A DNA stretch of 64,000 bases from Candidatus Moraniibacteriota bacterium (GCA_043743535.1 JAYTWI010000009.1:67407-131406), one strand, 5' to 3'. Numbered from the stretch's first letter, positions 750 to 36,710 are shown. A program made the numbers and translations. Notes: a model not told the origin generated them from the letters alone.

Positions 750-831
750 AGGTTTCAAACGGATGAAGAAAGAAATGATTCTCTGAAATTTTGTAAAAGA
801 TATATTTTAGAAAATTTCAAAATATCATCGT

Positions 832-20555: not shown

Positions 20556-22442
20556 CTACTGTGGCGGGAAGTAGTAGATGAAGAAATTATCACCGGCCCT
20601 GGCGATGGGTGTTTTGTCTTTGAGCCAGCTATAGTCTTTTTCTCCCGGCAACTTCTTTTTGTAGAGATTTTCCTGATAAAAGAAGGTCGTGATAGCGTAC
20701 CAGCCTGGTTCTGGATCACGACTGGCGTACCAGGGGATATATTTGCCCTCCAGGTAGTAGCTCGGGTTGCCGCCACCAAAATAGTCGACACGGATTTTGT
20801 CGATAGGTGGGTAAGAGAGGAGTGCCGTGTCGCAGCCAGGGAGAAATGATTTTCCTGCCACGCAATCATTATGCTTAGCGACGAAGTTTTTCAAATGGAT
20901 TAAATCTTGCCCCCAGTCATAATTGGAATCTGTGACGTACTTGTAACCATTGAGATGGCCGCCGGTGATGGCATTGAAGTAGGAAAGGTAGCTCGGGTAA
21001 CTCCAGATCGGGATGGCGACGATAATGAATGTGAGTAGACAAAAGAGGATAGTGAGTATTTTCTTGGTTCCAGGTTCATCTTGGGCGCGTTTGTAGAAAT
21101 CAAAGAGTGCTTTGGCGACCAGCATATAGAAGAAGGGCATAATAGGGAAGAGATGACGGAGGCCGATATTGAGATTGCCAGTGATGCTGATGTAGCCGTA
21201 GAAGAGGATGAAAAACATTGCAAGATACTGAGCCACGCGGTGCTGAAAGGAATGACAGAGCGTTTTTACCAGGCCATGCTTGGCTTTTTCTTCAATCAGC
21301 GATTTACCGATGCGGTAGAGTCCATAGCATGAGGTGAAGAGCAAAAGGAAGAGAAATGGCAAGGTCTCTTTGAGAACAAATACCACGGGGAAGTACCAGA
21401 GTGAGGCGGCTTCTGTGACTTGGCCTAGGAAGTAGTGGGTGTTGCCGCCAACCACGCGGGAAAAAACCATGAAGAAACCAAGAAAGTATTCACTCAGCGG
21501 CTTGAGGAGAGCATGTTCGCTGGAGTAAACAACTATGGCGTGAGCAAGATGAGCAAATTGATTTTTTTGAGCCAGGAGATGATCGGCCAGGATGGCAATT
21601 TTCTCACCCGGCATATTTATGGTATTTATGGCATAGACGATCCAAATGACCATGAAACAAACTACGACGCTTGCGGCGAATTTGAGGAGGTATTGGAAAA
21701 GCAATCGGGTTTTGAAAAGTGCTCTGCTTCTGGTATCGGCGGGATTCTGCTCCCTCGTCAAGGCATAGAGAATGACGAAAAGCCCGAAGACGGGGAAGAG
21801 GAGGACAGCGGAAAATTTCGCCAGTTCGGCAAGACCGAGAAAAAGGCCGGAGAGAAAAATGTTGCGCCCGTTCGGGTGTTTCAAGAAACGAATGAAAAAG
21901 TAAAATGCAAAAAAGATGAAAGCGGCGATGCCGATATCAGTAGTGACATAATGATTGTGGGCGATAATGTTGGGGTCGAAGGCATAGAGGGCGACAGCAA
22001 ATACGCCAGCCAGTGTCCCTCCGAGTTCTTTGGTCCAGACAAAAATCGCGATTCCAAGGAGGACGGCTATGATGATGATGGGGATGCGGGAGAAAAACAA
22101 AACGGTAGCAGTGTCGTTACAGGCTGCTTCGGGGCGTGAACAGTTGACGAACATATCGCCAACAACCCACTGCTCGTTAATCCCAGTTTGCCATTCTGCG
22201 GATGCGAGGGGGAACTGTAGTCCGAGAGGTAGCAACATGAGTCCAGCCAGGTCTTTGAGGAGCGGTGGGTGTTCGGGGTTGAGACGCATATCACCATAGC
22301 GGACGTAGCTGTAACCGGCTGGGATGTGAGCCTTTTCATCAAAAATCATCGATTCTTGGCTAGAGACCAAGAGTGAGAGGGCGAAGTGAAAGAAGAGGAT
22401 GCCTGCTACCACCATGACCGCGTGCTTTTTGACGAATTCCAT
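20556..22442 (-). CDS. GT-C fold membrane glycosyltransferase, PMT/ArnT-like (GT39/GT83, PMT_2)
   Basis: DEKAHIPAGYSYVRYGDMRLNPEHPPLLKDLAG in the first loop, about 12 TM helices, 628 aa. Confidence 0.7.
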   Translation of the reverse strand: MEFVKKHAVMVVAGILFFHFALSLLVSSQESMIFDEKAHIPAGYSYVRYGDMRLNPEHPPLLKDLAGLMLLPLGLQFPLASAEWQTGINEQWVVGDMFVNCSRPEAACNDTATVLFFSRIPIIIIAVLLGIAIFVWTKELGGTLAGVFAVALYAFDPNIIAHNHYVTTDIGIAAFIFFAFYFFIRFLKHPNGRNIFLSGLFLGLAELAKFSAVLLFPVFGLFVILYALTREQNPADTRSRALFKTRLLFQYLLKFAASVVVCFMVIWIVYAINTINMPGEKIAILADHLLAQKNQFAHLAHAIVVYSSEHALLKPLSEYFLGFFMVFSRVVGGNTHYFLGQVTEAASLWYFPVVFVLKETLPFLFLLLFTSCYGLYRIGKSLIEEKAKHGLVKTLCHSFQHRVAQYLAMFFILFYGYISITGNLNIGLRHLFPIMPFFYMLVAKALFDFYKRAQDEPGTKKILTILFCLLTFIIVAIPIWSYPSYLSYFNAITGGHLNGYKYVTDSNYDWGQDLIHLKNFVAKHNDCVAGKSFLPGCDTALLSYPPIDKIRVDYFGGGNPSYYLEGKYIPWYASRDPEPGWYAITTFFYQENLYKKKLPGEKDYSWLKDKTPIARAGDNFFIYYFPPQ

Positions 22443-22471
22443 AAGGCGTATGTTTTATTTAGATAGCCGGA

Positions 22472-24088
22472 TTATTTTTTCTCATCTGGAATAACAATGA
22501 CATCAAAATCGCCGCCCTCACGCGAAGGACCATTCCAATCGATATGCTGTTTGTAGGCGTTGGGGTAGCGTTCGAACATTTTCTGGGCGATAGTGTCGTT
22601 GTAATTGATCATGAGAAAGATACTGGGGTGGTGAATGATTGTATCTGGGGAGATGATTTCCATATTGGCTACGCGTTGATAGGTCAGATAGTAAAACGGA
22701 TGAGCATAGACGGGCAGTTTGTTGAAGTCGTTTTTGCCATCTTCGTTGATCATGATGTATTTCTGAGTGCTCTCTGGCAGGGCGAGCAAATAACGTGCCA
22801 TATTGGTGTAGTTCTCATTGAAGGCAGTAGCAGCATGGACGTTTTGACTGAAAAACACAAAATATTTTGTCAGATTAAAAACGGCGCTGAACGAGAGGCT
22901 GATGACCAAGAGTGAGACAAGAGCCAGTTTCATTCCAGGTTGTGAACGGAGGGCTTTTTGGGCGAACCAAAAGGCGGCCATAGTGGCCATGAGGAAGACT
23001 GGCATTTGCGTGCCGATGGAACGGAGGGCATGCGGCAATCCCTCGTTGGTCAGAAACTCCGGTAACAGCATGACAAAGAAGGATCCAAGGAGGAAAAAAT
23101 TTCTGACCAGACGCAGGTCACGGTCTTTATCACGGAGACGTTTTCCGATCAGGGTGACGGTCTGCCAGATGAGATAGAGAAACCCAGCCAGGAAGAAGGT
23201 GCCGACTACCGGGTCGAGGACCGGATAGGGTGGGTAGTTGTGGCGCCAGTTTTGATCACCCCAGAAATTATATTTGAGAAGTGAGAGAGCAAAAGTCTTG
23301 CCGATGGTACCCCAGAGATTGCCACCGTTAGCCAGTGGAGAAAATACGGAAATCTGTGAAGAACGTGACTCGAAGTCCTCGGGATGGGAAATAAAAAAGT
23401 TATAGAACATGGGGGCAGCGGAAATAAAGGCCCCGAAGATGAAAATGAGCGTGTGTTTCCAAAAGCGGCGGAGGAAGTTTTCGTAAGAAAAAATGAGCGC
23501 CGGAAACAATACGACGAGAATAAGCGGGGCTACCCGGAAAGCGATATAGGTGTGGAGCCCCAAACCGAAAATGATGCCAGAGAGGAAGAAATCGCGGATG
23601 CGCTGCGTCCGAAAGCCACGGAAAAAGAAGTAGAAAGAAAAAGTGAGAATGAAGGTAGTCATGATAGCCCGGAAGCCGATACGGGAAAAATTGATCGCCC
23701 AGTAGGAAGTGGCCAGCATAAAGGAAGCGATCAGACCGGCTCCGCTTCGGTGGAAGAGTTCTTTGGCCAGAAGGTACATCCCCAAGACAGACAATGTGCC
23801 GAAAAGCACCGAAGCGATGAGTAGCCCCGTGATGGTATTGCCAATAAGGGCAATAAAAAGTGCTTGGATATTGATAAACAAACCTTCACGGCCGTAGTTG
23901 GCTGGGTAGAAGAGTTTGAAATTCCCGCTGGCGAGAGCATTTAAGGCATCGACGCCATTGGCCGCTTCGTCAGGGTAGATGCCGGCTGGGATACTTTCGA
24001 TATGATAGAAACGGACGAAGAAGGCAAAGAGGATAATAAGAGCGAGAGAGGTTCCGACGATGAGGGAAAGTTTTTTGTGTGGGGTCAT
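22472..24088 (-). CDS. GT-C fold membrane glycosyltransferase, ArnT/PMT-like (GT39/GT83)
   Basis: IPAGIYPDEAANGVDALNAL... first-loop motif, polytopic. The track ORF extends to 24175, but the M at 24088 (MTPHKK...) is the more likely start because 24138-24175 looks like promoter sequence. Confidence 0.7.
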   Translation of the reverse strand: MTPHKKLSLIVGTSLALIILFAFFVRFYHIESIPAGIYPDEAANGVDALNALASGNFKLFYPANYGREGLFINIQALFIALIGNTITGLLIASVLFGTLSVLGMYLLAKELFHRSGAGLIASFMLATSYWAINFSRIGFRAIMTTFILTFSFYFFFRGFRTQRIRDFFLSGIIFGLGLHTYIAFRVAPLILVVLFPALIFSYENFLRRFWKHTLIFIFGAFISAAPMFYNFFISHPEDFESRSSQISVFSPLANGGNLWGTIGKTFALSLLKYNFWGDQNWRHNYPPYPVLDPVVGTFFLAGFLYLIWQTVTLIGKRLRDKDRDLRLVRNFFLLGSFFVMLLPEFLTNEGLPHALRSIGTQMPVFLMATMAAFWFAQKALRSQPGMKLALVSLLVISLSFSAVFNLTKYFVFFSQNVHAATAFNENYTNMARYLLALPESTQKYIMINEDGKNDFNKLPVYAHPFYYLTYQRVANMEIISPDTIIHHPSIFLMINYNDTIAQKMFERYPNAYKQHIDWNGPSREGGDFDVIVIPDEKK

Positions 24089-24137
24089 AGAGCGGGTCAC
24101 TGATGCTTCGATAGGCGACAGCAGAGATTTAATTTTT

Positions 24138-24150
24138 TTGTTTGTTATGG
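24138..24150. promoter_or_regulatory. Palindromic TGGTATAATTATA element giving back-to-back -10 boxes for divergent genes
   Basis: TATAAT is readable on both strands. It sits between the divergently oriented 22472..24088 (-) and 24192..26057 (+). Confidence 0.35.
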
Positions 24151-24191
24151 TATAATTATAACAAAGTTGCCACAAAAATGAAAATACGCTG

Positions 24192-26057
24192 ATGCCATTT
24201 AATTTTCAAGGCGGGGTAGATCGAGTCAGGAAACTTTTTTCGGGGGGTGAACAAGCTCACGATCTTCCTTTGATTTCTCTAGAAGAGTATCGAACAAAGT
24301 ATGCCGAGTACTTTTCCCCCGGTAAGTGCTGGATGAGTAGGGATAATAAGGTGAGAATAGAGACGTCGGTACCATGGATGATTAATCATACGCGCCTCGA
24401 TGAGGAAGATGAAAAGGGAGAGCCTAATCTTGCAAAAAGGGAGCTGTTTGCGAGTGAGGATGAATTATGGGCACTGCTCTACGACGGTGGGTACGAACCA
24501 ATCGGTATTTCTATTGCGAAAAATCCTGAGAAAGCGTCTGAGAGTGATAAAGGTGCGGATGGTGAAGCGACTACACCAGAGAGCGGCACCGAAACGCCGG
24601 CGGCCAATGTTGATAGCGTGACAGTCGAGGGGCATCCGGATTCGGGCGAAGATGCTATGCACATTATCGTCGAGGCTGCGAAAATACGAGCTGAAATCGA
24701 AACCTTGTTGAGCCAGGCACGTGAGTTGGTGGTTGCTGATGAACCTAACCCTTTACAGGAACTGCTTGTTCAAATTGATAGCGAAACAACCGAAGCATCA
24801 AAAGAAATCGATCGTTTGTTTACTACTCCTGCTCCAGACAATGTTGAAAAACTCACGGCACTGCTCGAAGAATTACGCCGTAGGCGTGATGGGGCAGAGC
24901 GGGCGCTTCATGCGCTACAGACACTCTCTTCCGATTCTGGAGCAGTAGTCGCGAGCGAAAAGACCCCAGCTGAATCAGGGGGTGGAGATTTTGGCGAGAG
25001 CAGAGGTAGTGAGAAAAAAACTTCCAAAAGAAAAAAAGGGAAGGGTAGTGGCCCTGATGATGGTGGCGAGGTGCCACTGGTTGTTGGGAGTTCACTGAAT
25101 GACGCTTCACTAAGGGTTTTAAGTAGCCTTAAAAGAATGACATCACCAGCCCCCATAGAGCAAACTCTGCTACCAGTGGAGTCTATAGCGGACGAAGGTG
25201 TAAAGAAGGCCACGGAACAAATTTTTTCGGAAGCGCTTGCTAGCGATCGTGCGACCGTATCTACGATAATTGAAGCTATCACGACTCCGGAAGAGTATGC
25301 GGAGTTCCTCCGTACGCTGGAGAAAACTCATTCCAAAGATGGCGATCGTGATATATATCATATCCTCAACTTTGATAACTATGAAGTCGCTTTCCGGCGG
25401 AGTCTTGCACAGGAAGAGCGTTCGGCAGTGATGGCATTGGAGGGGGAGCTTAAAAAACAGCTGTATGATAAGTTTGAAGTTCTTTTCGCGTCGTTTCGTC
25501 AGGAGTTACAAACGTATTATAATAAAGAAAAGGCGAAGATTGACAGCGTGGTAGAGGAAATAGCACTTGATGCTCTCGTTTCATCGTTTACTGATGGCCC
25601 AGAGTCTTTGCAGCGATGGAAAAAGTGTGCGCCCGACATGACCGCAGTCGAACAGTCAAGAGTGATGGAAGAAGCATCTCGACTCTTGGGCGCACTCAAC
25701 CACGACTTGGAAGCACGGAGGGGAGATCTCGCTCGGAGCAAAGAATGGGATGCTTTTCTGGCGCTTCCGAAAGGCGAGCAAATGATAAATTTGTACAAGC
25801 AGACGGTGAAAAGAGTCTGGCAGAGTTTTTTCGATGGGCTTAAAGACGAGGGGCTCATTGATGTTATGACATGGTCAGAAAAGATAAAAGAGTGGGAGAC
25901 TCACTATCTGCCTATGGTGAGGAAACAGATTGTTGGTAGTATTCTTGGTCAATCAGAGGTGACTAGAGAACAAGGGGAAATTATTTTTGAAGAGCTGCTG
26001 CGAGTACTTGACCGAGAACGTGAAGAAAAAAGAGCTAGAAGGGAAAGACCTGTATGA
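24192..26057 (+). CDS. Hypothetical acidic coiled-coil protein (621 aa)
   Basis: Long ORF, no TM, no recognised domain. Its stop overlaps the start of the next gene (ATGA). Confidence 0.5.
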   Translation: MPFNFQGGVDRVRKLFSGGEQAHDLPLISLEEYRTKYAEYFSPGKCWMSRDNKVRIETSVPWMINHTRLDEEDEKGEPNLAKRELFASEDELWALLYDGGYEPIGISIAKNPEKASESDKGADGEATTPESGTETPAANVDSVTVEGHPDSGEDAMHIIVEAAKIRAEIETLLSQARELVVADEPNPLQELLVQIDSETTEASKEIDRLFTTPAPDNVEKLTALLEELRRRRDGAERALHALQTLSSDSGAVVASEKTPAESGGGDFGESRGSEKKTSKRKKGKGSGPDDGGEVPLVVGSSLNDASLRVLSSLKRMTSPAPIEQTLLPVESIADEGVKKATEQIFSEALASDRATVSTIIEAITTPEEYAEFLRTLEKTHSKDGDRDIYHILNFDNYEVAFRRSLAQEERSAVMALEGELKKQLYDKFEVLFASFRQELQTYYNKEKAKIDSVVEEIALDALVSSFTDGPESLQRWKKCAPDMTAVEQSRVMEEASRLLGALNHDLEARRGDLARSKEWDAFLALPKGEQMINLYKQTVKRVWQSFFDGLKDEGLIDVMTWSEKIKEWETHYLPMVRKQIVGSILGQSEVTREQGEIIFEELLRVLDREREEKRARRERPV

Positions 26058-29000
26058 AGAATCACACATTCGAAGGACACGGAGAACAAAATAAAACACC
26101 CGAGCCTATGAGCGAGCGAGCAGCCAAACTGGCAGCGTTAAGAGAGAGGCTATCGCCAATTATTGCGGACGGAATGGCTGTTGATTTAGAAGTGTTCGAT
26201 CAAAAACCGACGGCAGAGGGAGGTTCAGAATCAGGAGCGGTGGAATCGCAAGTGGTGGAACCGGCTGCTACTTCCGCGGTACCTGAGCCAGCTTCATCGC
26301 CAGACCAGGTACTAAAACCACGACGAAGAGCGAAAGCAAGAGTGGAAAAGGGCAAGAAACCAAGAAATCCTTCTGCTTCGACGGCTTCACCAGGAACTTC
26401 GAATGTTCTTGTTTCTGCTACCGTGGAACAGCCCGCATCGTTCAAGGAATCTGCCCCCGAACTTTTGCCCGAAGGTGGTCAGTTGAAATTTACGGATGAA
26501 CGTGGGGTGGACGTGATAGTGGAAAAGCAAGGTGGCTTGTATGGGGTGGATGATAGCAAAGATTTCACCGGATTTATTTATAATGAGGATCAAATAAGGA
26601 CGTTGATCAAAGGATGGACACCGTTAGGAGAAAGTGTCTTGGAGTTAGCTCAAGAAACTGAAAGACAAGAGCAGGAAAAACTGTATGGAGAGGTTGAGAG
26701 GTTGCTTATCCAACAGCAAGAGCAATGGCTGGTAAGAATAGAACAAATTACGAATACTGAAGAGTATAACGCTTTGGTAGATGAAGCAGTGGAAATCGGT
26801 AGGCAATACAAACCGGACCATCCAGGAATAATGAGTTTCCTACTCGGGGAGCCCTTTGAGAGGTTGTTGGCACAGTATCCGCAAGTGAGTACTCAGACAA
26901 AAGAAAAATTGTATTCGCAGGCCCACGACCTACAAGGGAAGATAAATAAAGCTTCCCGAAAAAAAGCCAGTGATTTGCTGATTATGCGAACGGAAGCACC
27001 AACAGCTCATTCAGGCGCTAGCACTTCTGCTCATGACGCATTTCCGCTGGTGAAAACATCGGATCATGGTCATGGTGTATCGCAGAATGAAATTGGAGAA
27101 GTTACGAGCGGTGAGGCAAGAGGAGAAAGACTGGAAAGGTATAGGGCGCAGATAGCGGCCGGCGACTTTGAGGAGGCAGTGATTATCAATCGGGACACTC
27201 CATCAGTAGCCGGGATTGTCAGTCCAGAGGCCGCAGCGGATGCCGGCATTGATTCAAGTGAGCCCTTTGAGACTGATTTTGTCCCGTTTGCAGATGGGGA
27301 GAGAGTGAGCTATCTCACTCTTGACGAGGAAGAAGGAAGCGTGGAAAAAAGAAATGGGAAGTATTTTATCAAGACGGGGGATACTATGCTTGATGCTAAT
27401 GATCCAGGTCTGAGTGAAGTAGGAATGCTGGCAGAAGCTCAAAAAAATAAATGGCGTTTCCAGCGTGAGCTTAACGGAGGAGCGCCTGGCGCCGTCGAGC
27501 TACCAGTATTCAATGACGTCATTAGGAACGCATCGATTGGAGGCGAGAGTAATCCGGCTACTGCGTCCCCTGATGCTGCTCGCGCGGGAGAAAGAAGAGA
27601 ACAGGATTACGACACGGTACGCGAAGGCGATGTGTGGGTGCTACGCGATGCTTCCGGCCAAGAATTACGACGGGTAACAGTGAATCAATTTATTAAATAT
27701 AGTGGAACAGCACTACAGGTCAATTTTTCTGACAGCACAAAGCAACTTCCCCCGGTAGAGGATGACTTCGGATACCTTGATGTGGATTTGACCCGCGTTG
27801 ATACGGAAATGGTTTTGGATAGGTTTCTTCAGATGCTGCGTGCTGATGGCTTTGTGTTGGAAAGTGCTGGTACGGGAGCAGGAACAACTGAAGTGGCGCC
27901 GATTATGGGTGAGCGACGAGGGATGGATGCTCCAGATGGCCGAAGGGCTGAAGTACCGGTTGAAAATCCCGACGTGGCAGTGAAGATTGAGGAAGAACAT
28001 ACTGTGCCTACTACACTCGAGGAGAAAATTGCCCAGTTGCGGCAAGAAAAAGATGAGTTTCGTTATAAATTTGCAGAAAGTGATTTCAAAAATAGCACCA
28101 TCTTGGGGAAATTAGGCTCCATCTTTCGTGAATTGGACAAGAATAAGAAAGATTATGATACGGACACATGGAAAAGGTATTATCTGGGGGCACTAGAGCA
28201 ACTGAAGGATGCTGAGCTGGAACAAATAAAAAAATCGGGGCTCACTGGAGAGATCTTGAATGATGCTTTGGCTGGGATGCTTGAGTATTACAAGATCAAC
28301 GAACCATTGGGATTGATCAAGGCTCGTACCCGCGTACGCTTGGAAACAAAAATAGCAGACAAAGAATGGCCAGAACAGATAATGGATCGGATGGAAAATA
28401 TTGGACGGGAGTACAACAAGCTCAATTGGAAGACAAAAGTTCTCATTGGGGGAGTATTTATTGGCGGCGCGTTCACTTTGGGGTCTACTGGGGCGGCGGG
28501 GGCAGCCATTGGCGGCGGGGCACTTTTCCTTCGGAAAATAGTGACCAGCATTGGAGGGGGTCTTTCTTTGGATGCCACACTCGAAAAAGTAGAAGACTGG
28601 TTTGAGAAAAAGAGCGATACGGATAACAAAGAAATTAAAAAGCAAATGGCAAGAATGGATGATATTGACGACTGGGATAAATTCGAAGGAGTTAATGTTT
28701 TACTTGATCAGGAGATTGCTTCACTTGATGGAAAGTTACAGAAACATAAATCTCATGCCACCAAACGGAAACTCATTGCTTTCGGAACGAGTATCGGATT
28801 TTCATTCGGGAGTTATGCTTTCGGCCATGGCGCCCCGAGTGCTGGTGGAGGAGCGGCGCGTACAACGGTAGCGGCAGCGGCAGCGGAGGCGAAGCGAGCC
28901 GCCATACCATCTGGTGCCGCGGCTTCTGGAGTAGCCCGCTCTATTGAGCAAGCGGCTTCGGCTCCCAGTGGGGCAGCCTCGGCTGGGGTGGGGCAGGCAC

Positions 29001-30208
29001 CAATGCCGAGTGGGGCAGCTTCGGCTGCGATGGAGCAGGCCACTCCTCCTCAGGCTAATGCGGCGGCTTCAGCGGTAGCGGTAGCTGAGCGCATCGCTGC
29101 TCCAGTACCAGGTGTCGATACTACTCCTCCAGTAGGAGCGGCTGTGAAGATAGCGGCGGAGACAGCGGCCGCGATCCCGGGGAAAGATCTGTTGATCAAT
29201 TATTCGGTGACGCCAGCTGATGCGCGTAAGGGTTTGTGGGGCATATTGGAAAAGCGTTTGCCTGCTGATATGTCAGAAGCAGAGCGCCCACGCGCTATTC
29301 AGTCGCTCTCCAACGCTATTGCGCGAAAACTGCAGGAAATGGACCCGGAAGATTGGAAAAAAGTCGGTTTCCCTTCAGGTGAAGTCGGTGACATTCGCGC
29401 TGGGGGCACTATTGACTTTGCAAGATTGCTCAATCCAGATGATGTCCAAAAGGTACTCAATGGAAATTTCATTGCCGCGCCGCCAGAAATACCGTACCCT
29501 ACTTCTTCTATCGTAGAGCCGGCGGTTGATGTGGCTCTGACGGTTGGCGTCGATGCCAGTGGGCTAGCAAAACAAGTAGTACAAGAAGTGGTGAGTGACA
29601 AATTATCTGAAGTAGCGGCCGTAGCAGCAAAGATTCCTGATGTCTCCTCGGGTGAAAAGGCGGCTATCTTCAGTAGCTTTCAAGAACCGTCAGTACCACC
29701 AAAGGGCATGCCGATTGAGGGTGTTCACCCATCTACGGTTGTCACAACCTATGTGACGGAACGAGCCACGCTATTGCCTCGGGAGGGGATGATTCGTGCG
29801 CGCTATGGAGTGCGGGCGATACAGTATTTCCAGGAACATCCTGGAGAATGGGGAGGAGTGAGAGAATCCGCCACTAGGATGCGCGATAGCCTCTTCTTTG
29901 ATCCGAATGCTTCATATAATCCGGAGCGGTATGCCAGGTTAGGTCAGACGACGTTGTCATCGGTGCTGCGCGATGCCGAAGCCTTCAGACAGAATCCGCT
30001 TGCTAACTTCACTTATGATCGCACTACCGACCCACTGAGCATTCGTGCCATACGCCAGGTGAATGATTTTGTGGAAATTGCTAAGCGGACTTTTGGTGTG
30101 GAAGGGGCGATGGTTGCGGCAGGAGAATCGATTAACAACTATGTGCTTCGGATGACGATGAAAGGTGTGGCGGAGGGGCGACCTATCAGATTTTTTTATC
30201 GATCATAA
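26054..30208 (+). CDS. Giant hypothetical protein (1384 aa) with central Gly-zipper hydrophobic segment and Ala/Ser/Pro-rich repeat region
   Basis: ORF translationally coupled to the upstream gene. VLIGGVFIGGAFTLGSTGAAGAAIGGGALFL plus three PSGAAS-type repeats at ~28900-29040. Confidence 0.55.
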   Translation: MKNHTFEGHGEQNKTPEPMSERAAKLAALRERLSPIIADGMAVDLEVFDQKPTAEGGSESGAVESQVVEPAATSAVPEPASSPDQVLKPRRRAKARVEKGKKPRNPSASTASPGTSNVLVSATVEQPASFKESAPELLPEGGQLKFTDERGVDVIVEKQGGLYGVDDSKDFTGFIYNEDQIRTLIKGWTPLGESVLELAQETERQEQEKLYGEVERLLIQQQEQWLVRIEQITNTEEYNALVDEAVEIGRQYKPDHPGIMSFLLGEPFERLLAQYPQVSTQTKEKLYSQAHDLQGKINKASRKKASDLLIMRTEAPTAHSGASTSAHDAFPLVKTSDHGHGVSQNEIGEVTSGEARGERLERYRAQIAAGDFEEAVIINRDTPSVAGIVSPEAAADAGIDSSEPFETDFVPFADGERVSYLTLDEEEGSVEKRNGKYFIKTGDTMLDANDPGLSEVGMLAEAQKNKWRFQRELNGGAPGAVELPVFNDVIRNASIGGESNPATASPDAARAGERREQDYDTVREGDVWVLRDASGQELRRVTVNQFIKYSGTALQVNFSDSTKQLPPVEDDFGYLDVDLTRVDTEMVLDRFLQMLRADGFVLESAGTGAGTTEVAPIMGERRGMDAPDGRRAEVPVENPDVAVKIEEEHTVPTTLEEKIAQLRQEKDEFRYKFAESDFKNSTILGKLGSIFRELDKNKKDYDTDTWKRYYLGALEQLKDAELEQIKKSGLTGEILNDALAGMLEYYKINEPLGLIKARTRVRLETKIADKEWPEQIMDRMENIGREYNKLNWKTKVLIGGVFIGGAFTLGSTGAAGAAIGGGALFLRKIVTSIGGGLSLDATLEKVEDWFEKKSDTDNKEIKKQMARMDDIDDWDKFEGVNVLLDQEIASLDGKLQKHKSHATKRKLIAFGTSIGFSFGSYAFGHGAPSAGGGAARTTVAAAAAEAKRAAIPSGAAASGVARSIEQAASAPSGAASAGVGQAPMPSGAASAAMEQATPPQANAAASAVAVAERIAAPVPGVDTTPPVGAAVKIAAETAAAIPGKDLLINYSVTPADARKGLWGILEKRLPADMSEAERPRAIQSLSNAIARKLQEMDPEDWKKVGFPSGEVGDIRAGGTIDFARLLNPDDVQKVLNGNFIAAPPEIPYPTSSIVEPAVDVALTVGVDASGLAKQVVQEVVSDKLSEVAAVAAKIPDVSSGEKAAIFSSFQEPSVPPKGMPIEGVHPSTVVTTYVTERATLLPREGMIRARYGVRAIQYFQEHPGEWGGVRESATRMRDSLFFDPNASYNPERYARLGQTTLSSVLRDAEAFRQNPLANFTYDRTTDPLSIRAIRQVNDFVEIAKRTFGVEGAMVAAGESINNYVLRMTMKGVAEGRPIRFFYRS

Positions 30209-30231
30209 TTCACGGTTAACATATTTATACT

Positions 30232-30537
30232 ATGGCTCTCGATTATACAGCGCTGCGTGAAGAATTGATCACGTCTTTTCACTTGGAACAGGTGCCGAAA
30301 GAGCGGCAGGACGAACTTATCTCCAAGATGGGCGAGGCCCTTCTCAAAAGAATTTTTTTGGAGACGATGGAAAAGCTCGGTGACGATGGCGTGGTTGCGT
30401 ATGAGGCGCTCTTGGATAAGAAAGCTAAACAAGAAGAGATTGAAGCATTTTTCGAAAGCAAGATTCCGGGGTACAATGTCTTTATCAAAGGAGTGGTCGA
30501 GGACTTCAAAGAAGAAATGTCAAAGAATTTGGCCTAA
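30232..30537 (+). CDS. Hypothetical small acidic protein (101 aa)
   Basis: ORF only. Confidence 0.4.
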   Translation: MALDYTALREELITSFHLEQVPKERQDELISKMGEALLKRIFLETMEKLGDDGVVAYEALLDKKAKQEEIEAFFESKIPGYNVFIKGVVEDFKEEMSKNLA

Positions 30538-30540
30538 TCA

Positions 30541-30993
30541 TTGGTGTACTCATATATGCCTGAAGAAGAAATGGTGTTGCCATCCGAAAACAAGGCTGAG
30601 ACCGAACCTCTTTCTCCAGAAGCGGTGCCAGTCACAGCTGCAACCGAGGGTACATTTCGCCCGGAGGAACAGGCCTCCGCTCCTGAATCGGCGGCTGAAA
30701 AATCTGAGGGTACCTATCATGAGATTTTGTCCAAAGTTGCCAGTAATGCCTCTGTTGTTGCGCCTCAGGATGACAGTTCGATAGCTCTCGATACCAAGAG
30801 TATCAGTGAAACGACTGATGAAGAAAGTAGGATACAAAAGCTCCTCAATCTGGCTACCACCAAGGGAGTGGGGCATGCCGTCAAGGTAGCCCAGTCGCTC
30901 CGCGATTTTTATGCTCTCGATCGTATGCATGACGAACTCTCTGGCAAACTCTATGAGGGGCTGCTCAAACTCGGTCTGATCACCAAGGAATAA
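30541..30993 (+). CDS. Hypothetical protein (150 aa, possible start at 30556)
   Basis: ORF only. No hydrophobic segments. Confidence 0.35.
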   Translation: MVYSYMPEEEMVLPSENKAETEPLSPEAVPVTAATEGTFRPEEQASAPESAAEKSEGTYHEILSKVASNASVVAPQDDSSIALDTKSISETTDEESRIQKLLNLATTKGVGHAVKVAQSLRDFYALDRMHDELSGKLYEGLLKLGLITKE

Positions 30994-31015
30994 TAGGGGA
31001 GATATTTTTGGTTCT

Positions 31016-33517
31016 ATGCAAAACAGTTTTGATTTGAATACTCTGCTGGTGCCGTTGGTGTATCTCTTCGCTACCGCATCTTTGATGAGCGGCGTGTATT
31101 TGGTCGTCCGTAGCTTTTTACGTTTTCGATACCAGGTCAACCAGTCGCTCAATATGGATTTGGAGGTGATCAAGGTGATGCGTAAGAAGAGCCCAGAGGG
31201 ACAGCAGCAGGCGGCTGATGCTTGGCGTGAAGAAATTTTTGCCATGGAACAACTCCTTTCTTCCTTGGCGGTTTTGAAGCCAACTGGCAACTTTCTCAAG
31301 AAGCTTTTTTTCGAGCCGCCGAGCATCGTTTTCGAGATCACGAACCCTTCGTCGAGCGAAGAAATATTTTTTTACCTCTCTATCCCCAAGCGCCACCGCG
31401 AAAGCGCGGAGAAGCAGATCCACAGTTTCTTCCCGCATGCTGTTATCGAACAGATTCCTGATTACACGATCTTTTCCCCAGGCAGTTTTACGGCAGTGGC
31501 GCTTCTGGAATTGAAATCCACTCACGCCTTGCCGCTCCGTACTTACCGCACGCTTGATATCGATCCGCTCAATGAAATTTCCAATGCCCTGAGTAAATTG
31601 GAGACAGAGGCCGAGGGCGCTGCTATCCAGATATTGCTTTCTCATACTGATAGTCAGTGGCGTTCAGAAGGGCGCGTCTTGGCCCAAAAGATGCAGGAAG
31701 GGAAACGCTTGAAGGATGCGCAGGGGAGTGGCACGTTTGCCAAAGACGTAGGAAAAGGAGTGGGCAAAGAAATGGCCTCGATGCTGATGCGCACACCGAA
31801 TACTGGGAAGAGAACTGATGCAGAAGAAAAAAAGGTGGTATCACTGACCCCTGAAGAACAGGAGTTGGTGAAATCAATCGACAGCAAAGCGAGCAAAGCT
31901 GCTTTCCGAGTCAATATCCGGCTGTTGTCTTCAGCTGCTACACAGGAGCGAGCTGATGCTATCTTGGCTCATATGGAGAACGCTTTTGGGCAATTTGAAA
32001 ATCCTGAAGTGAATAGTTTTCGGGTCAAGAAACGTATCAAAGACAAGACGGCTGTTTATGACTATATCTTTCGCAATGTGGACGACGAGCAGGCAATGAT
32101 TTTGAACGTGGAGGAGTTGGCTAGTATTTTCCATTTTCCGATCTCTACCACCGAGACACCCAAGATCAAGTGGTTGAAAGCAGGAGCAGCTCCTCCACCG
32201 GTAAATATTCCGAAGGAAGGCATTCTCCTTGGTTACAATGATTATCGTGGCGTGAAGAGTGATATTCGTATCACTGATAATGACCGCCGCCGCCATATGT
32301 ATGTTATCGGGCAGACAGGTGTCGGTAAGTCCAATTACCTCCAGGAAATGGCCAAGAAGGACGCTCGGGCTGGCAAGGGCTTCTGTTTCATCGATCCGCA
32401 CGGCGATGCCATCGAGGATATTTTGACCGCCATCCCCAAAGAGCGAGCCGAAGATGTCATCATTTTCGATCCAGCTGATGTGGCGCGACCGATTGGTATC
32501 AATATGCTCGAATTCGATCCGGCTCATCCGGAACAAAAGACTTTCGTCATCAATGAAATGATTGGTATCTTCGACCAGCTCTACGATATGAAAGCCACCG
32601 GCGGTCCGATGTTCGAACAGTATATGCGAAACGCCATGCTCCTCATTATGGAGCACCCAGAGAGCGGTTCGACACTCATGGAAATTCCCAAAGTCTTGGC
32701 TGATGAAGAGTTCCGCCGCTACAAACTCTCCAAATGCACCAACCCCATCGTGCGCGACTTTTGGTTGAAGGAGGCAGAGAAAGCTGGGGGCGAGGCTTCG
32801 CTCGCCAATATGGTGCCGTACATCACGTCCAAACTCACCACTTTCATTAGTAACGACATGATGCGTCCTATTATCGCCCAGCAGAAGAGCACGCTTAATT
32901 TCCGTGAGATTATGGACGGGGGCAAGATTCTTCTCATCAATCTTTCCAAGGGCAAGATCGGTGAAATTAATGCTCGTTTGCTCGGTATGGTGATCGTCGG
33001 AAAAATCCTGATGGCCGGTCTATCGCGGGTGGATATCCCCGAGGCCGAGCGCAGAGATTTCTATCTCTACCTCGATGAATTTCAAAACGTTACTACAATT
33101 TCCATTGCTCAGATTCTCTCAGAGGCTCGCAAGTACAAGTTGGTGCTCATCTTGGCTCACCAGTTCATCGCCCAACTCAAGGAAGAAATTTCCAAGGCGG
33201 TCTTTGGCAACGTCGGCTCACTCACTGCTTTTCGGGTGGGACCGGAGGATGCTGATTTCCTGGAAAAGCAGTTTGCCCCGGTCTTTACGGCTAACGACTT
33301 GGTCAATGTCGATAATTATAACTGTTTCGTGCGTCTTCTTATGAATAACGAACTGACCAAGCCTTTCAATATGAAAACCTTTCCGCCCAGCCATGGTGAT
33401 CAGGAAGTGGCCAACGCCCTAAAAGAGCTCTCTCGCTTGCGCTACGGGCGCGATGCCTCGATCGTCAATCGAGAAATTATGTCTCGGATGCAACTAGCCG
33501 AAAAAGCAGTGGTCTAG
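31016..33517 (+). CDS. VirB4/TraC/CagE-like type IV secretion ATPase (FtsK-HerA superfamily)
   Basis: One N-terminal TM, a ~400 aa N-domain, then RRHMYVIGQTGVGKS Walker A, YLYLDEFQNV Walker B and RKYKLVLILAHQFIAQL, an R-finger/Q motif typical of VirB4/VirD4 ATPases. 833 aa fits VirB4 better than VirD4. Confidence 0.6.
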   Translation: MQNSFDLNTLLVPLVYLFATASLMSGVYLVVRSFLRFRYQVNQSLNMDLEVIKVMRKKSPEGQQQAADAWREEIFAMEQLLSSLAVLKPTGNFLKKLFFEPPSIVFEITNPSSSEEIFFYLSIPKRHRESAEKQIHSFFPHAVIEQIPDYTIFSPGSFTAVALLELKSTHALPLRTYRTLDIDPLNEISNALSKLETEAEGAAIQILLSHTDSQWRSEGRVLAQKMQEGKRLKDAQGSGTFAKDVGKGVGKEMASMLMRTPNTGKRTDAEEKKVVSLTPEEQELVKSIDSKASKAAFRVNIRLLSSAATQERADAILAHMENAFGQFENPEVNSFRVKKRIKDKTAVYDYIFRNVDDEQAMILNVEELASIFHFPISTTETPKIKWLKAGAAPPPVNIPKEGILLGYNDYRGVKSDIRITDNDRRRHMYVIGQTGVGKSNYLQEMAKKDARAGKGFCFIDPHGDAIEDILTAIPKERAEDVIIFDPADVARPIGINMLEFDPAHPEQKTFVINEMIGIFDQLYDMKATGGPMFEQYMRNAMLLIMEHPESGSTLMEIPKVLADEEFRRYKLSKCTNPIVRDFWLKEAEKAGGEASLANMVPYITSKLTTFISNDMMRPIIAQQKSTLNFREIMDGGKILLINLSKGKIGEINARLLGMVIVGKILMAGLSRVDIPEAERRDFYLYLDEFQNVTTISIAQILSEARKYKLVLILAHQFIAQLKEEISKAVFGNVGSLTAFRVGPEDADFLEKQFAPVFTANDLVNVDNYNCFVRLLMNNELTKPFNMKTFPPSHGDQEVANALKELSRLRYGRDASIVNREIMSRMQLAEKAVV

Positions 33518-33591
33518 GGAAGAAAATGGACTGCGAAACGAAAGTTTGCTTGCGTTTCTGAGCAGAGAGATTGCTTTTTGGTAAATACTTT

Positions 33592-35952
33592 TTATTTCAG
33601 CTTGAAGGAGAAGAGCTCATGGTCAGTTGTCAAGAAAACTTCATTCCCTGATTCATTGACCGTGAAGGCAGTGGCAGTAGCCAATTTTTCATGGAAATAC
33701 TGAGTGACGATTTGACCCGCTTGATCCCAGGAAAGCAGTCGCTTGTTGTTTTGGTCGAGAGCATAGATATTTGCTAAACCCGAATGGGTGTAGAGGGCGG
33801 TGAGCGAAAGCATAGCTGTGGGGGATTCGAGGGTGTTTTGTCTGTGGCCACGAAAGAATCCATCGATGACAGGTAGTTCAGGTGCCGAAAGGTAGATGGT
33901 GTCACTCACTGTCATTTTGGTGTTATCAGTTATGGCTACGGTATTTTTCAGCCACTTGGTGCCTTCGCCGAAGCCACCCTCTGCCCGCGGAAAGCGATAA
34001 ATTTGATCAGTACTGTCGTCGAGCACGTAGAGATAGGTGAGGTAGGCACCGATGCTTCGTACCCGCACCCCTGCTGGAAGGTTGAGATTGTTTTCGACAA
34101 AGGAGTGATTGATAGGACTAAAGGCAAAGAGACGTTTGTTTTCAGTGTAGATGAAGAGGAGATGCAAATCATCCATAACGGCTACCTGGGTAGCAGAATT
34201 ATTTTCCGGCAGCGGAAAAGTCTGATTGTTCTCGATTTCGATAATGCTTTTCTTTGTCACCAAGTATGGGGCATTCGCTAAGATGACTGGCGTGACGATA
34301 TTTTCTTCTGTAGTGGTGATATGAAGGACATCACCCACGATTTGGGCATTTTTTTCGTTGTTCGGGGCTATGACGGTGACCGCTACTGTTTCTGTGTTTA
34401 CTTGCTGCACTGGTTGTTTGTTTACGGTTTCCTTACTGGTCTGTGATTTTCCAGAAAAATAAAAAATGACGAAGGCGAGAAGGATGAACACGCCGAGGCT
34501 GCCGAAGAACGTTTTGAGGAGGATAAGAAAGCGCGAAGGAGCTTTCTCCTGGACCTGTCTATTTTGGTAGAAACGGGCTATTTTCTCTTTGATAAAGGAG
34601 GGGATTTCTTCTTCTGGCTCAAAAGCGATTTCTTTTGTCGTGGCTAAAGTGCTACTTGTTAGCTTTACTGTTTGCTCTTTAGTTATTGTGGTGGGCAATC
34701 CTGCACGAGAAATTTCGTCGATAATAAGTGCTTGCTCCGGAATAACAGGAGGCACTATTTTTGATGTGATTGCTAATACTTTCGCTTGTTTCAGGGATCT
34801 TTTCTCAGCTGCTTTCGCCACAACATGTTTCCAGAAACGTTTTACTACACGCACCGATTTGCGAGCGACGGTGCGGCCGCTTTGCCCCAATGCTAGGAGA
34901 GTGAGACTCATTTGCTTTCTCTCTTTACGCCACCACTTGTCTTGGGCAGTGGCTATGGTACGGAGGAAGTGACCTGTTTCCAAGAGGCCGAGCTTAAAGT
35001 GTTCAAAAAAAGGATGGGCACCTGGTGTTTGTGGTGTGTCGCCCTGGACATAAATATGACCAGTTTTCGAGTCGATGTATTCTGGGAGGGGGGATTCTTT
35101 TGCTTCGACTTGCTTAGTTGTTTCTTCCTGGCTGTCTAGGCGTGATTTCGGTGAAAAGGCTGATTGGCTAAAAACGTTACTCACTATGGCATTCATTGAT
35201 TCTTCGGATTTTTTTGTGGGCTTCTTTTCTGGTAGCTGAGCACTACCTTCTTTGAGGTCAATGACTAGAGTGCCGGACATATCGAGCTCATTGACGAGGG
35301 CAGTCTTTAGGAACTGGGCGAAACGCTCGCGGCCGATGCGCTGGGCGTTTTTTTCCAAATTGGTTAAAGAAAAGAGAGCAAAAAGTTCTGGTGAACTTAA
35401 AAGCACCTGATCCTCAGCATTTAATCGGCCGCTCGAAACTTCGACAAAGGTCTTGATGGGATGCTGCGAAGATTCATCTGAGGCGAGACCTTCGCTAATA
35501 TCAGCCATCGTGCCATTGCGAAAAAGGATGATGCGAGCGTGGCCAGTAACGGAAAAATGAAGATTATTTTTTTCGAGTACCCCTAATGCGCCGTGGAATT
35601 TTCCGAGCCAGGCGATGTTGCCATGCTTCACCAGTTCGGTTAGTGCCAAATTGATTTTGTGGAGAGCTGCTTCAAAGCTTTCGATGGCTCCGCGATGGGA
35701 GTTGCTAAAATATTCTTTTTTAGCTACGGAGGCGAGGAAATTAACGATGTAGGCCGAGTCATCACTCTTTTCATCCACCTCGAAAACGCCGAGGAGCGTT
35801 CCTAGTCCTTGTTTGGAAATATTTTCGCCGGTAACGCTAAAGGTCCGTATAAATGGCTCTACGGAACGCCCATTCGTGACAAGGATCTCTGTCACCACCT
35901 TCTCCAATTCCGGCAGGGGTTTTATTTTTTCTTGATTTTTTCTTTCGGACAT
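33592..35952 (-). CDS. Membrane protein: N-terminal cytoplasmic PP2C-like (possibly catalytically degenerate) domain, one TM, C-terminal extracytoplasmic domain
   Basis: LGVFEV..., FHGALGVLEKNNLHFSVTGHARIILFRNG and MSGTLVIDL resemble PP2C motifs, but the DGHGG metal motif is absent. TM at FLILLKTFFGSLGVFILLAFVIFYF. Confidence 0.4.
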   Translation of the reverse strand: MSERKNQEKIKPLPELEKVVTEILVTNGRSVEPFIRTFSVTGENISKQGLGTLLGVFEVDEKSDDSAYIVNFLASVAKKEYFSNSHRGAIESFEAALHKINLALTELVKHGNIAWLGKFHGALGVLEKNNLHFSVTGHARIILFRNGTMADISEGLASDESSQHPIKTFVEVSSGRLNAEDQVLLSSPELFALFSLTNLEKNAQRIGRERFAQFLKTALVNELDMSGTLVIDLKEGSAQLPEKKPTKKSEESMNAIVSNVFSQSAFSPKSRLDSQEETTKQVEAKESPLPEYIDSKTGHIYVQGDTPQTPGAHPFFEHFKLGLLETGHFLRTIATAQDKWWRKERKQMSLTLLALGQSGRTVARKSVRVVKRFWKHVVAKAAEKRSLKQAKVLAITSKIVPPVIPEQALIIDEISRAGLPTTITKEQTVKLTSSTLATTKEIAFEPEEEIPSFIKEKIARFYQNRQVQEKAPSRFLILLKTFFGSLGVFILLAFVIFYFSGKSQTSKETVNKQPVQQVNTETVAVTVIAPNNEKNAQIVGDVLHITTTEENIVTPVILANAPYLVTKKSIIEIENNQTFPLPENNSATQVAVMDDLHLLFIYTENKRLFAFSPINHSFVENNLNLPAGVRVRSIGAYLTYLYVLDDSTDQIYRFPRAEGGFGEGTKWLKNTVAITDNTKMTVSDTIYLSAPELPVIDGFFRGHRQNTLESPTAMLSLTALYTHSGLANIYALDQNNKRLLSWDQAGQIVTQYFHEKLATATAFTVNESGNEVFLTTDHELFSFKLK

Positions 35953-36104: not shown

Positions 36105-36710
36105 ATGTCACTTGTTCTCTTTGACGCGTTATTCGGATCGAAAGCACGTGCCCGGCTCATCCGTTTCTTTTTGCTCAATCCTGGAGTGGAATTTGGTACG
36201 GCAGAAGTATCTGAAAAGACGATGATCCCCCGAGCGGAAGCGACGCGGGAATTGACACGTTTAGCCAAGATGAAGCTGATTGTCGAACGGACACGCAAGG
36301 GTCACCGTTGTTTCGTCGTCAATGAAGCCTTCCCTTTTTATACGGAACTCAAAAGCTTGGTTTCCAAACTCAATGTTCACGCCCAATCACAGGTCTTCCG
36401 CAAAATTAAAATTATTGGCGAGGTCAAACTGATCCTCATCAGTGGTCTTTTCCTCAATTATCCCAAGAGTAAAGTAGATATGGTGCTCGTGGTCAATAAC
36501 GTCAACCGCACTAAGTTGAAGCATGCCATAGCGCATTTGGAGGCTGAGGTGGGGAAGGAGATTCGTTTTGTCCTTATGAATAGCGAAGAACTGCACTACA
36601 GGCTCAATATGCTTGATCGTTTTTTCATCGAGTTTTTGGAAGCTCCCTATGAAGAAGTGACCAACAAAGTCCCTGAACTGAAGCGGTTCATCGCTGGGCT
36701 GAAGAAATAG
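36105..36710 (+). CDS. Hypothetical protein with N-terminal winged-helix-like region and C-terminal minimal nucleotidyltransferase-like region
   Basis: ARARLIRFFLLNP...AEVSEKTMIPRAEATRELTRL resembles a wHTH. GEVKLILISG...DMVLVV resembles a NTase core. Weak call. Confidence 0.4.
   Translation: MSLVLFDALFGSKARARLIRFFLLNPGVEFGTAEVSEKTMIPRAEATRELTRLAKMKLIVERTRKGHRCFVVNEAFPFYTELKSLVSKLNVHAQSQVFRKIKIIGEVKLILISGLFLNYPKSKVDMVLVVNNVNRTKLKHAIAHLEAEVGKEIRFVLMNSEELHYRLNMLDRFFIEFLEAPYEEVTNKVPELKRFIAGLKK

Follow-up and report, generated by a model that had tools for sequence, protein, structure and literature searches.

The closest described relatives of the protein studied here are type IV coupling proteins (T4CPs) of the DUF8128 type. 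They belong to conjugation loci of monoderm bacteria and archaea, such as those on a plasmid of Embleya sp. NBC_00896 (WP_331738717.1) and on the 65-kb plasmid of Bacillus subtilis DSM 5611 (WEZ26732.1). On these plasmids, the T4CP gene adjoins genes for VirB4, VirB3/PrgI or TcpE, a VirB6-like protein, a relaxase, and a cell-wall hydrolase. We analyze a gene for an 833-aa ATPase of the same full-length architecture. It lies in a stretch of 64,000 nucleotides from a Candidatus Moraniibacteriota bacterium (GCA_043743535.1 JAYTWI010000009.1:67407-131406), called the window from here on. The window ATPase and the plasmid proteins share a transmembrane (TM) anchor, DUF8128, a P-loop domain with a helical insertion, and the same set of Pfam families, at 26% identity over 749 aa (E = 3e-72). 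Unlike its plasmid relatives, the window ATPase is chromosomal, has housekeeping surroundings and unrelated operon mates, and shows none of those partners within 64 kb.

Other T4CPs differ more in their build. TrwB (R388), VirD4, and TraD have two TM helices, no DUF8128, and a relaxosome partner; they are only 17% identical to the window ATPase, and the window has no relaxase. Some T4CPs work with small dedicated partners: CagZ in the case of Cag-beta, and IcmS, IcmW, LvgA, DotM, and DotN in the case of DotL. Neither sequence nor fold evidence links the two small proteins of our locus (150 aa, and 101 aa with a DUF5663) to CagZ or the Icm adaptors. FtsK/SpoIIIE and Streptomyces TraB are membrane-anchored ring ATPases of the same superfamily. 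They work without the channel of a type IV secretion system (T4SS), and their chromosomal replication/division context is similar to that of our locus.

Patescibacteria account for much of bacterial diversity and rely on host cells. In the one member that is amenable to genetics, the T4SS is essential, and no cargo or coupling protein has been tied to it. The canonical system consists of a VirB4 clade within MPF-FATA plus TrsD, PrgI/VirB3, VirB6, and VirB2-like pilins (PMC12102498). Its published locus has no linked coupling protein (PMC12102498, PMC10633639). In Paceibacteria it is usually found near dnaA/dnaN (PMC12102498), and in Saccharibacteria the essential locus lacks a recognizable coupling protein (transposon sequencing, PMC10633639). 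Compared with this system of the same phylum, our locus encodes other proteins, and none of the T4SS components is in the window. Nearly every Patescibacteria genome carries unlinked T4CP homologues. A 2025 survey of 3,035 genomes counted 5,713 VirD4-type homologues in 2,918 of them, and just 148 were near virB4 (PMC12102498). In S. epibionticum, the T4CP homologue is non-essential while the T4SS is essential, and exaptation was deemed possible (PMC12102498).

The locus described here shows one such orphan T4CP. It ranks among the best-conserved genes nearby, and a small partner gene recurs beside it. In one order, it shares an operon with fast-evolving giant envelope proteins. We regard the locus as a poorly understood variant of a known part and not as a new secretion machine.

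Gene content of the locus

The cluster comprises six genes, called as open reading frames (ORFs).

24192-26057 (+), 621-aa protein, first gene of the operon
26054-30208 (+), 1384-aa giant protein
30232-30537 (+), 101-aa acidic DUF5663 protein
30541-30993 (+), 150-aa protein; the true start is probably Met6 (nt 30556), giving 145 aa
31016-33517 (+), 833-aa ATPase
33592-35952 (-), 786-aa protein, convergent

A preliminary description of this DNA had listed the same six ORFs, five of them co-oriented, and our ORF list reproduces them exactly. Three of its further statements also hold. The 621-aa and 1384-aa genes are joined by an ATGA overlap, in line with the translational coupling it proposed. 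The 621-aa protein is acidic, with a net charge of -35 (-44 for the giant protein). The 786-aa protein is a membrane protein, with one strong TM helix at aa 481-499. The remaining intergenic gaps among the five plus-strand genes are 23, 3-18, and 22 nt. Because of the overlap and these tight gaps, the five genes look like one operon. The database version of the 150-aa protein begins at Met6 (145 aa). A scan for promoter and terminator consensus sequences gave counts at chance level and none above.

The rest of the window is ordinary chromosome. It contains glycolysis genes, MurD, MurA, MreB, glycosyltransferases, holB, and FtsQ. Further housekeeping genes encode two PMT_2 glycosyltransferases, RmuC, an MraY-like transferase, RF1/PrmC, S2, Tsf, RpoA, and tRNAs. 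The base composition is flat across the region. Close homologues assign the DNA to Candidatus Moranbacteria, a lineage of the Patescibacteria (Candidate Phyla Radiation, CPR). VirB3, VirB6, VirB8, any other T4SS channel gene, a relaxase, a pilin, and an integrase are all undetectable anywhere in the 64 kb. The preliminary description had likewise found none of these canonical partners and no integrase, and had concluded that the cluster does not look like a classic conjugative element. The flat composition, the absence of integrase and relaxase, and the housekeeping synteny agree with that conclusion.

The ATPase is a coupling protein

The 833-aa protein is a membrane-anchored member of the T4CP family (VirD4/TraD/TrwB type) with a DUF8128 N-terminal domain. 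Its main features are the following.

31034-31108 (+), single N-terminal TM helix, aa ~7-31 (hydropathy 1.77; part of a long helix, aa 7-45, in the AlphaFold 2 (AF2) model)
31154-32215 (+), DUF8128 alpha/beta N-terminal domain, aa ~47-400
32309-32332 (+), Walker A GQTGVGKS, aa 432-439 (G432 and K438 invariant in 42 homologues)
33059-33079 (+), Walker B FYLYLDE, aa 682-688 (D687 and E688 invariant in the same homologues)

Three kinds of profile comparison point to the coupling proteins. In Pfam, TrwB_AAD_bind (34.9 bits, cut-off 20.5), TraG-D_C (26.9 bits, cut-off 22), and DUF87 all score above their cut-offs. In NCBIfam, TraD/VirD4-like models give the best of the partial matches. When a profile built from 42 homologues is compared with all PDB sequences, it finds TrwB (9e-8), DotL (5e-6), and then HerA (1e-3), and matches no VirB4 chain. 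The T4SS-DNA_transf model does not match the window ATPase; it matches the Embleya homologue and, weakly, homologues from the CPR.

The architecture is also that of a T4CP. The AlphaFold model is confident (mean predicted local distance difference test, pLDDT, 86.3). From the N-terminus, it shows a long TM helix, then an alpha/beta N-domain, and last a P-loop domain that carries a helical insertion of ~130 aa. It superposes on nearly all of TrwB-deltaN70 (357/420 residues, 3.2 A). An all-alpha domain inserted in the nucleotide-binding domain is characteristic of T4CPs and is present here. The same holds for an N-terminal membrane anchor, here one TM helix, ahead of a cytoplasmic P-loop domain in which both Walker motifs are intact. 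DUF8128 (PF26449) is N-terminal in all the homologues.

Annotated plasmids supply the decisive comparison. Full-length relatives, DUF8128 included, are found at 22-28% identity in Streptomyces and its relatives, Bacillus, haloarchaea, and Sulfolobus. The Embleya locus encodes, in order, a TrbL/VirB6-like protein, PrgI (VirB3), a VirB4-like protein (TraC_F_IV/AAA_10), the ATPase homologue, a Replic_Relax relaxase, and NlpC/P60. This homologue carries T4SS-DNA_transf, TrwB_AAD_bind, and TraG-D_C. The window ATPase aligns with it end to end (aa 76-811, E = 3e-72). With the VirB4 of the same locus, it aligns around Walker A only (E = 0.011). The homologue on the B. subtilis 65-kb plasmid (aligned over aa 102-816) is encoded upstream of TcpC/TcpD/TcpE. 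The window ATPase is thus a full-length ortholog of the T4CPs of bona fide conjugation loci.

The preliminary description had called this ATPase VirB4/TraC-like. The results above contradict that label. The VirB4-family models of Pfam (CagE_TrbE_VirB, AAA_10, TraC_F_IV) have no match on the ATPase at E<0.01. Among the VirB4 models of NCBIfam, the sole match is VirB4_plasma (E = 0.04, 11.6 bits against a cut-off of 590). The N-terminal domain is not homologous to the VirB4 N-domain. Channel genes such as VirB3/PrgI and VirB6 are absent beside the ATPase, both in the 64-kb window and in 80 syntenic loci. Likewise, neither the window nor these loci associate it with a T4SS channel and a substrate (relaxase or effector).

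An FtsK or HerA identity, which the preliminary description had considered as an objection, does not fit either. By sequence, the ATPase groups with the T4CPs of secretion and conjugation systems, and not with FtsK/HerA. It lacks the FtsK_SpoIIIE motor-domain model and the C-terminal gamma (KOPS-binding) domain. It also lacks the N-terminal HAS barrel of HerA and a partner nuclease or effector such as NurA, Sir2, or DUF4297. PADLOC matches the ATPase with mad8, component 8 of the methylation-associated defense system (MADS), at E = 4.8e-13 over aa 410-764, and weakly with HerA; it finds no other MADS or defense component nearby.

The ATPase is therefore a T4CP of the VirD4/TraD/TrwB class and not a VirB4. 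From its sequence, it is predicted to be catalytically intact and of the hexameric type. It should be active, given the invariance of Walker A (G432-S439) and of D687 and E688 in Walker B. The misassignment illustrates a trap for annotation: a protein of ~800 aa with a C-terminal P-loop in a CPR genome is not necessarily VirB4.

Distribution of the ATPase family

We scanned 1.84 billion representative proteins for the family, using clusters at 50% identity. At E<1e-3, the scan returned 21,711 clusters, and 5,784 remain at E<1e-30. Full-length alignments at 33-54% identity are common among them. The ATPase occurs throughout the CPR and also outside it. Every context examined in the CPR is chromosomal. 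In Patescibacteria, the ATPase gene belongs to the chromosomal core, is inherited vertically, and has no linkage to T4SS channel genes. Because of this unlinked position and the family assignment, it very probably belongs to the published set of unlinked T4CP homologues.

The ATPase family and its orphan state in Patescibacteria are already published, and DUF8128 is in Pfam. Our searches found no literature on PF26449 (DUF8128) or DUF5663. For three features, no description was found in the literature searched: the recurring small upstream partner, the accretion of DUF5663 and a hypervariable LysM-like giant membrane protein at the level of one order, and a linkage to dnaX.

Some CPR homologues (P0179, P0187, P0177; locus L089, 5560-10680) have C-terminal tails of 600-1200 aa that are disordered and rich in Pro, Ala, Ser, and Gln. 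The tails terminate in a short conserved motif, K..KGEVYVD..GNVIVGE. Disordered tails are the only fusions in these long CPR homologues, and no informative domain was found in them. T4CPs such as TraD and DotL use their tails for partner recruitment. The long tails would fit a recruitment platform.

Two plasmid relatives have a divided architecture. In haloarchaea (Natrinema pellirubrum plasmid pNATPE01, L086, 8647-12814), the counterpart of DUF8128 has its own gene (382 aa), which immediately precedes that of a 994-aa T4CP-like ATPase, so that the two halves are naturally split. A plasmid of Sulfitobacter mediterraneus (L171, 6989-8176) encodes a 395-aa protein that aligns only with the ATPase domain (aa 399-785, 36.6% identity, E = 8e-64). 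This alphaproteobacterial protein, which has no N-domain, is closer to the ATPase domain than any Gram-positive plasmid homologue. Its gene adjoins transposases and a recombinase.

Conservation across Moranbacteria

We compared 80 species-level loci of Moranbacteria, with ATPases 65-87% identical to the window copy. The syntenic order is holB, FtsQ, two PMT_2 genes, a variable block, the 101-aa gene, the 150-aa gene, the ATPase, the 786-aa gene, a 201-aa gene, and RmuC onward. Since the whole region is syntenic in Moranbacteria, the shared order alone proves nothing. Conservation varies strongly from gene to gene. The median identity of the ATPase is 71%, compared with 30-62% for most flanking housekeeping genes. 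The other values are 73% for the 201-aa gene, 62% for RmuC, 52% for PMT_2, 47% for the DUF5663 gene (101 aa), 42% for both the 150-aa and the 786-aa genes, 41% for holB, and 30% for FtsQ. The 1384-aa gene reaches 27%, in its C-terminal half only.

The 150-aa gene is present in 78/80 loci and invariably adjoins the ATPase. The DUF5663 gene is present in 64/80; its product matches PF18908 (DUF5663) at E = 6.5e-7, above the gathering score. Members of the 1384-aa family, detected with a profile, occupy the slot just upstream of the small genes in 51/60 loci. This slot is empty in L052 and holds merely 268-291 aa in L041 and L063. A sister lineage (L087, ATPase 54% identical) keeps a large gene, two small genes, and the ATPase; neither its large nor its small proteins match the family profiles, including that of the 1384-aa family.

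Neighbors of the ATPase in other lineages

For a more diverse sample, metagenomes were scanned with an alignment of distant members. It gave 80 loci (L090-L169) with ATPases 36-59% identical to the window copy, and their ORFs were called and clustered locally. A small gene (90-220 aa) on the same strand lies within 160 bp of the ATPase start in 49 of the 71 loci with an upstream ORF. The small proteins form at least four families. Across these families, a long disordered N-part precedes a short helical C-part. This also describes the 150-aa protein, whose disordered N-part is acidic. Its family occurs in 13 diverse loci, 11 times at position -1, across 6-9 ATPase clades whose ATPases are 43-59% identical to the window copy. 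Loci with longer ATPases (~930-1050 aa) have a small-upstream family of their own, with the motif DEDLIE.EWV ... Y.QLQ...S.YLKKR.

The other neighbors have a narrower range. Outside Moranbacteria, DUF5663 is limited to L123 and L140, whose ATPases are at least 57% identical to the window copy, and to L164. The 1384-aa family and DUF5663 reach together only the closest sisters (L123, L140, and perhaps L145). None of the diverse loci has a homologue of the 786-aa gene. Co-conservation is thus nested. The ATPase is everywhere, the small upstream partner is in most lineages, DUF5663 and the giant are at about the order level, and the 621-aa gene is at the strain level. Broad conservation is seen for one companion of the ATPase only, the small protein encoded directly upstream, which has a disordered and acidic N-part.

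The preliminary description had presented the genes as a cluster around a VirB4-like ATPase and had named unrelated neighbors without co-conservation as an outcome that would refute it. The cluster is real and its upstream genes are uncharacterized, as it stated, although the label of the central ATPase was wrong. The co-conservation holds broadly for the small upstream gene and at the order level for the giants, but not for the 786-aa gene.

One replication gene recurs near the ATPase. The dnaX gene (gamma/tau of DNA polymerase III) lies up to seven genes downstream in 13 diverse loci, which represent 9-13 separate clades. Genes for an XerC/D-type recombinase (16 loci), DivIC, NrdR, ribonucleotide reductase (RNR), and a PduO-type adenosyltransferase are also found beside the ATPase, in one or two ATPase clades. 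Because of this restriction, the XerC/D, DivIC, NrdR, and RNR neighbors are put down to synteny within a lineage and do not count as independent support. One large clade has the ATPase in a conserved block with NrdR, RNR, the PduO-type adenosyltransferase, the XerC/D-type recombinase, and DivIC.

Another family without annotation, of ~180-220 aa, is encoded directly downstream (+1) of the ATPase in 10 loci of 6-8 clades (L095, L097, L099, L100, and others; in L082 at 381-968, minus strand). It has an N-terminal coiled coil and a highly conserved C-part, EGVFDG..MID..GKKYPVPANYASKSKLV.GD.LKL...DG.F.YKQIGPV. The family is absent from the 64-kb window and from the Moranbacteria loci.

Large proteins of the operon

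The 621-aa and 1384-aa proteins are both acidic and have no match in Pfam, NCBIfam, or PADLOC. The 621-aa protein is found by tblastn in 1/80 Moranbacteria loci. By phmmer, it matches just two loci, with ~100 aa of the C-terminus in common. This gene is hypervariable and nearly strain-specific. The N-terminal 620 aa of the giant protein are also variable and acidic. Both this part and the 621-aa protein share only scattered modules with their relatives. The C-terminal 765 aa of the giant are conserved within Moranbacteria, with conservation limited to aa 640-925, aa 1041-1160, and aa 1280-1384, apart from a poorly conserved linker. Its parts are the following.

27971-28828 (+), helical conserved region, aa 640-925 (alignment occupancy 0.8-0.95; helices confident in AF2)
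28829-29173 (+), Ala/Pro-rich low-complexity linker, aa 926-1040 (read from sequence; pLDDT <50)
29174-29503 (+), degenerate LysM-like domain, aa 1041-1150 (family motif VxxGDxxWGxL)
29801-30205 (+), all-helical C-terminal domain, aa 1250-1384 (pLDDT 80-95; in ~70-80% of the family)

Within the first region, aa ~795-840 form a hydrophobic hairpin rich in glycine, and aa ~905-925 are a third hydrophobic segment. These segments have a hydropathy of 1.0-1.6 in the window copy and of up to 2.2 in homologues, and they show GxxxG-type motifs. Since a signal peptide is absent and the membrane segments are odd in number, the variable N-part would be cytoplasmic and the LysM-like end outside. The domain at aa 1041-1150 seems to be LysM-like. 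A family profile, compared with PDB sequences, matches the LysM region of LytE (1.5e-6) and the LysM of SafA (0.028) over the first ~25 residues only. The Pfam LysM model matches 2/29 family members, with a best E of 0.02. In the window copy, the domain appears degenerate, with a 3-residue insertion in place of the GD of the motif. The AF2 model of this domain is confident and shows a small alpha/beta fold with two short strands and long helices. The C-terminal domain gave no informative fold match. The preliminary description had proposed to compare the giant with VirB6, VirB8, and VirB10, and the fold search found no such fold in it.

DUF5663 and the hypervariable giant are operon acquisitions in Moranbacteria and their closest sisters. 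The 621-aa gene is a further, strain-specific one.

Function of the cluster

We propose that the cluster is a coupling or substrate-recruiting module, possibly serving a T4SS encoded elsewhere, and give this reading a probability of about 0.5. The T4CP ring would use ATP at the inner face of the membrane to recruit a substrate and feed it to a translocation channel. The small upstream proteins would be putative adaptor or regulator subunits, by analogy with CagZ for Cag-beta and IcmS/IcmW for DotL. The fast-evolving large operon mates may be lineage-specific clients or envelope partners of the ATPase. The channel would most likely be the separately encoded Patescibacterial T4SS, the VirB4/VirB3/VirB6/pilin locus that usually lies near dnaA. 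Such a module implies that the cluster is not a self-contained secretion apparatus. The locus yields concrete candidates for adaptor and cargo, and it frames an either/or question: coupling to the T4SS, or an independent DNA or protein pump.

Several points weigh against this proposal. The 64-kb window has no T4SS channel gene. T4CP homologues are present in ~500 more Patescibacteria genomes than VirB4 (2,918 against 2,417; PMC12102498). An obligate coupling to the T4SS is doubtful, because the S. epibionticum T4CP is non-essential although the T4SS is essential. The four small-upstream families show no mutual homology (hhalign probability <1%) and could be unrelated genes. A giant protein with membrane segments could insert via Sec without any T4CP. 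Finally, the very high conservation of the ATPase and the recurrent dnaX linkage fit a housekeeping role on DNA at least as well.

We also offer, tentatively, a broader possibility. The DUF8128 T4CP homologue and its small upstream partner might be a phylum-wide, vertically inherited two-gene machine that serves neither conjugation nor the known T4SS. It could be a motor that places or exports lineage-specific, hypervariable giant envelope proteins for host contact, such as the LysM-like protein of this operon, or a stand-alone DNA pump tied to replication and division. If true, this would be a new functional class derived from T4CPs.

A DNA pump independent of the T4SS is a less likely explanation. 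The T4CP-like ATPase would have been exapted as a stand-alone membrane-anchored translocase, like FtsK/SpoIIIE or Streptomyces TraB. Its task would be to segregate or clear chromosomes at division, or else to take up or transfer DNA, with the upstream genes as regulators or envelope anchors. The ATPase is conserved at a housekeeping level, its gene lies among holB, ftsQ, and rmuC in the window, and dnaX is within seven genes downstream in 13 loci of 9-13 separate ATPase clades. The non-essentiality in S. epibionticum is compatible with this role, and SpoIIIE and SftA are likewise dispensable in Bacillus. A relaxase is missing, and T4CP homologues occur in genomes without VirB4 (PMC12102498). 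A review treats TraB as a T4CP working without other T4SS subunits (PMC12857230), which also counts for a pump. However, the closest relatives outside the CPR are coupling proteins of complete conjugation loci. Each subunit has one TM helix, with no obvious DNA channel. The Xer, DivIC, NrdR, and RNR neighbors reflect lineage synteny, and TM7x already has an annotated ftsK (PMC10768705). A stand-in for FtsK, first suggested by these neighbors (XerC/D, DivIC, NrdR, RNR), is weakened by their clade restriction and by the TM7x ftsK. It is kept only as a rival, via dnaX.

The preliminary description had offered two options for the cluster. One was a divergent or minimal type-IV-like machine with the giants as structural parts, the other a different assembly borrowing only the ATPase. 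A self-contained secretion or host-interaction apparatus of the first kind, powered by the ATPase, is improbable. Its appeal lies in the tight five-gene operon and in the membrane segments and LysM-like ectodomain of the giant, which suit envelope spanning. In addition, a large gene fills the slot in almost all Moranbacteria and in L087, there with an unrecognizably different sequence. But the ATPase is not VirB4, the one universal T4SS component, and the search for a VirB6/8/10-like fold was negative. The giants are missing or short in some Moranbacteria (L052; L041/L063) and absent from most other ATPase-bearing CPR lineages. They also evolve far faster than usual machine parts (27% median identity against 71% for the ATPase). 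The second option is nearer the mark.

A decayed remnant of an integrated conjugative element, or an anti-phage defense ATPase of the HerA/MADS type, is very improbable: plasmid homologues in conjugation loci, the mad8 match in PADLOC (about 5e-13), and the weak HerA matches speak for it, but the composition is flat, integrase, relaxase, and repeats are absent, no tRNA gene lies near the cluster, the gene order is identical across 80 species with the ATPase second in conservation, the opposite of a patchy, strain-variable presence between flanking repeats is observed, and PADLOC sees a generic ATPase domain with no other MADS or defense component. We rejected the mobile-element reading on the flat composition, the housekeeping synteny, and the lack of integrase and relaxase, and the defense reading on the generic nature of the PADLOC matches.

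Flanking genes

The 786-aa gene is a syntenic neighbor only, no more syntenic than the flanking housekeeping genes. In one Moranbacteria subclade, the 786-aa, 201-aa, and RmuC genes are missing downstream of the ATPase, and another gene directly follows it (L044, L050, L052, L053, L055, L057, L060, L073, L074). The C-terminal ectodomain of the 786-aa protein is NHL-repeat/beta-propeller-like (profile against PDB, E = 6e-4). The preliminary description had assigned a PP2C-like domain to this protein. That assignment comes down to 1/27 family members at E = 0.012; the window copy itself is unmatched, no PDB sequence gave a PP2C match, and the assignment is unsupported. The family has a very conserved cytoplasmic N-domain (aa 40-300) with many invariant residues, and the length of the linker around the TM helix varies widely.

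The 201-aa protein (36105-36710, plus strand) is basic and as conserved as the ATPase, with a median identity of 73% and up to 89% across Moranbacteria. It has no Pfam family. It matches over its full length the PADLOC candidate defense family PDC-M05A (E = 3.9e-20). Because of its fixed syntenic position, we argue that it is a housekeeping regulator rather than a defense gene.

Many metagenome-assembled records titled 'uncultured Bdellovibrionales bacterium' (L003, L004, L006, L010, L012, and more) carry the Moranbacteria-specific block, with ATPases 67-85% identical. Given this syntenic block, they are evidently mislabeled Patescibacteria.

On the other side of the operon, two tandem PMT_2-type (dolichyl-phosphate-mannose-like) glycosyltransferases of 628 and 567 aa occupy 20556-24175 on the minus strand, divergent from it. 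The start codons of the PMT_2 gene and the operon are only 16 nt apart. The pair is kept in this position in all Moranbacteria and in the sister lineage L087.

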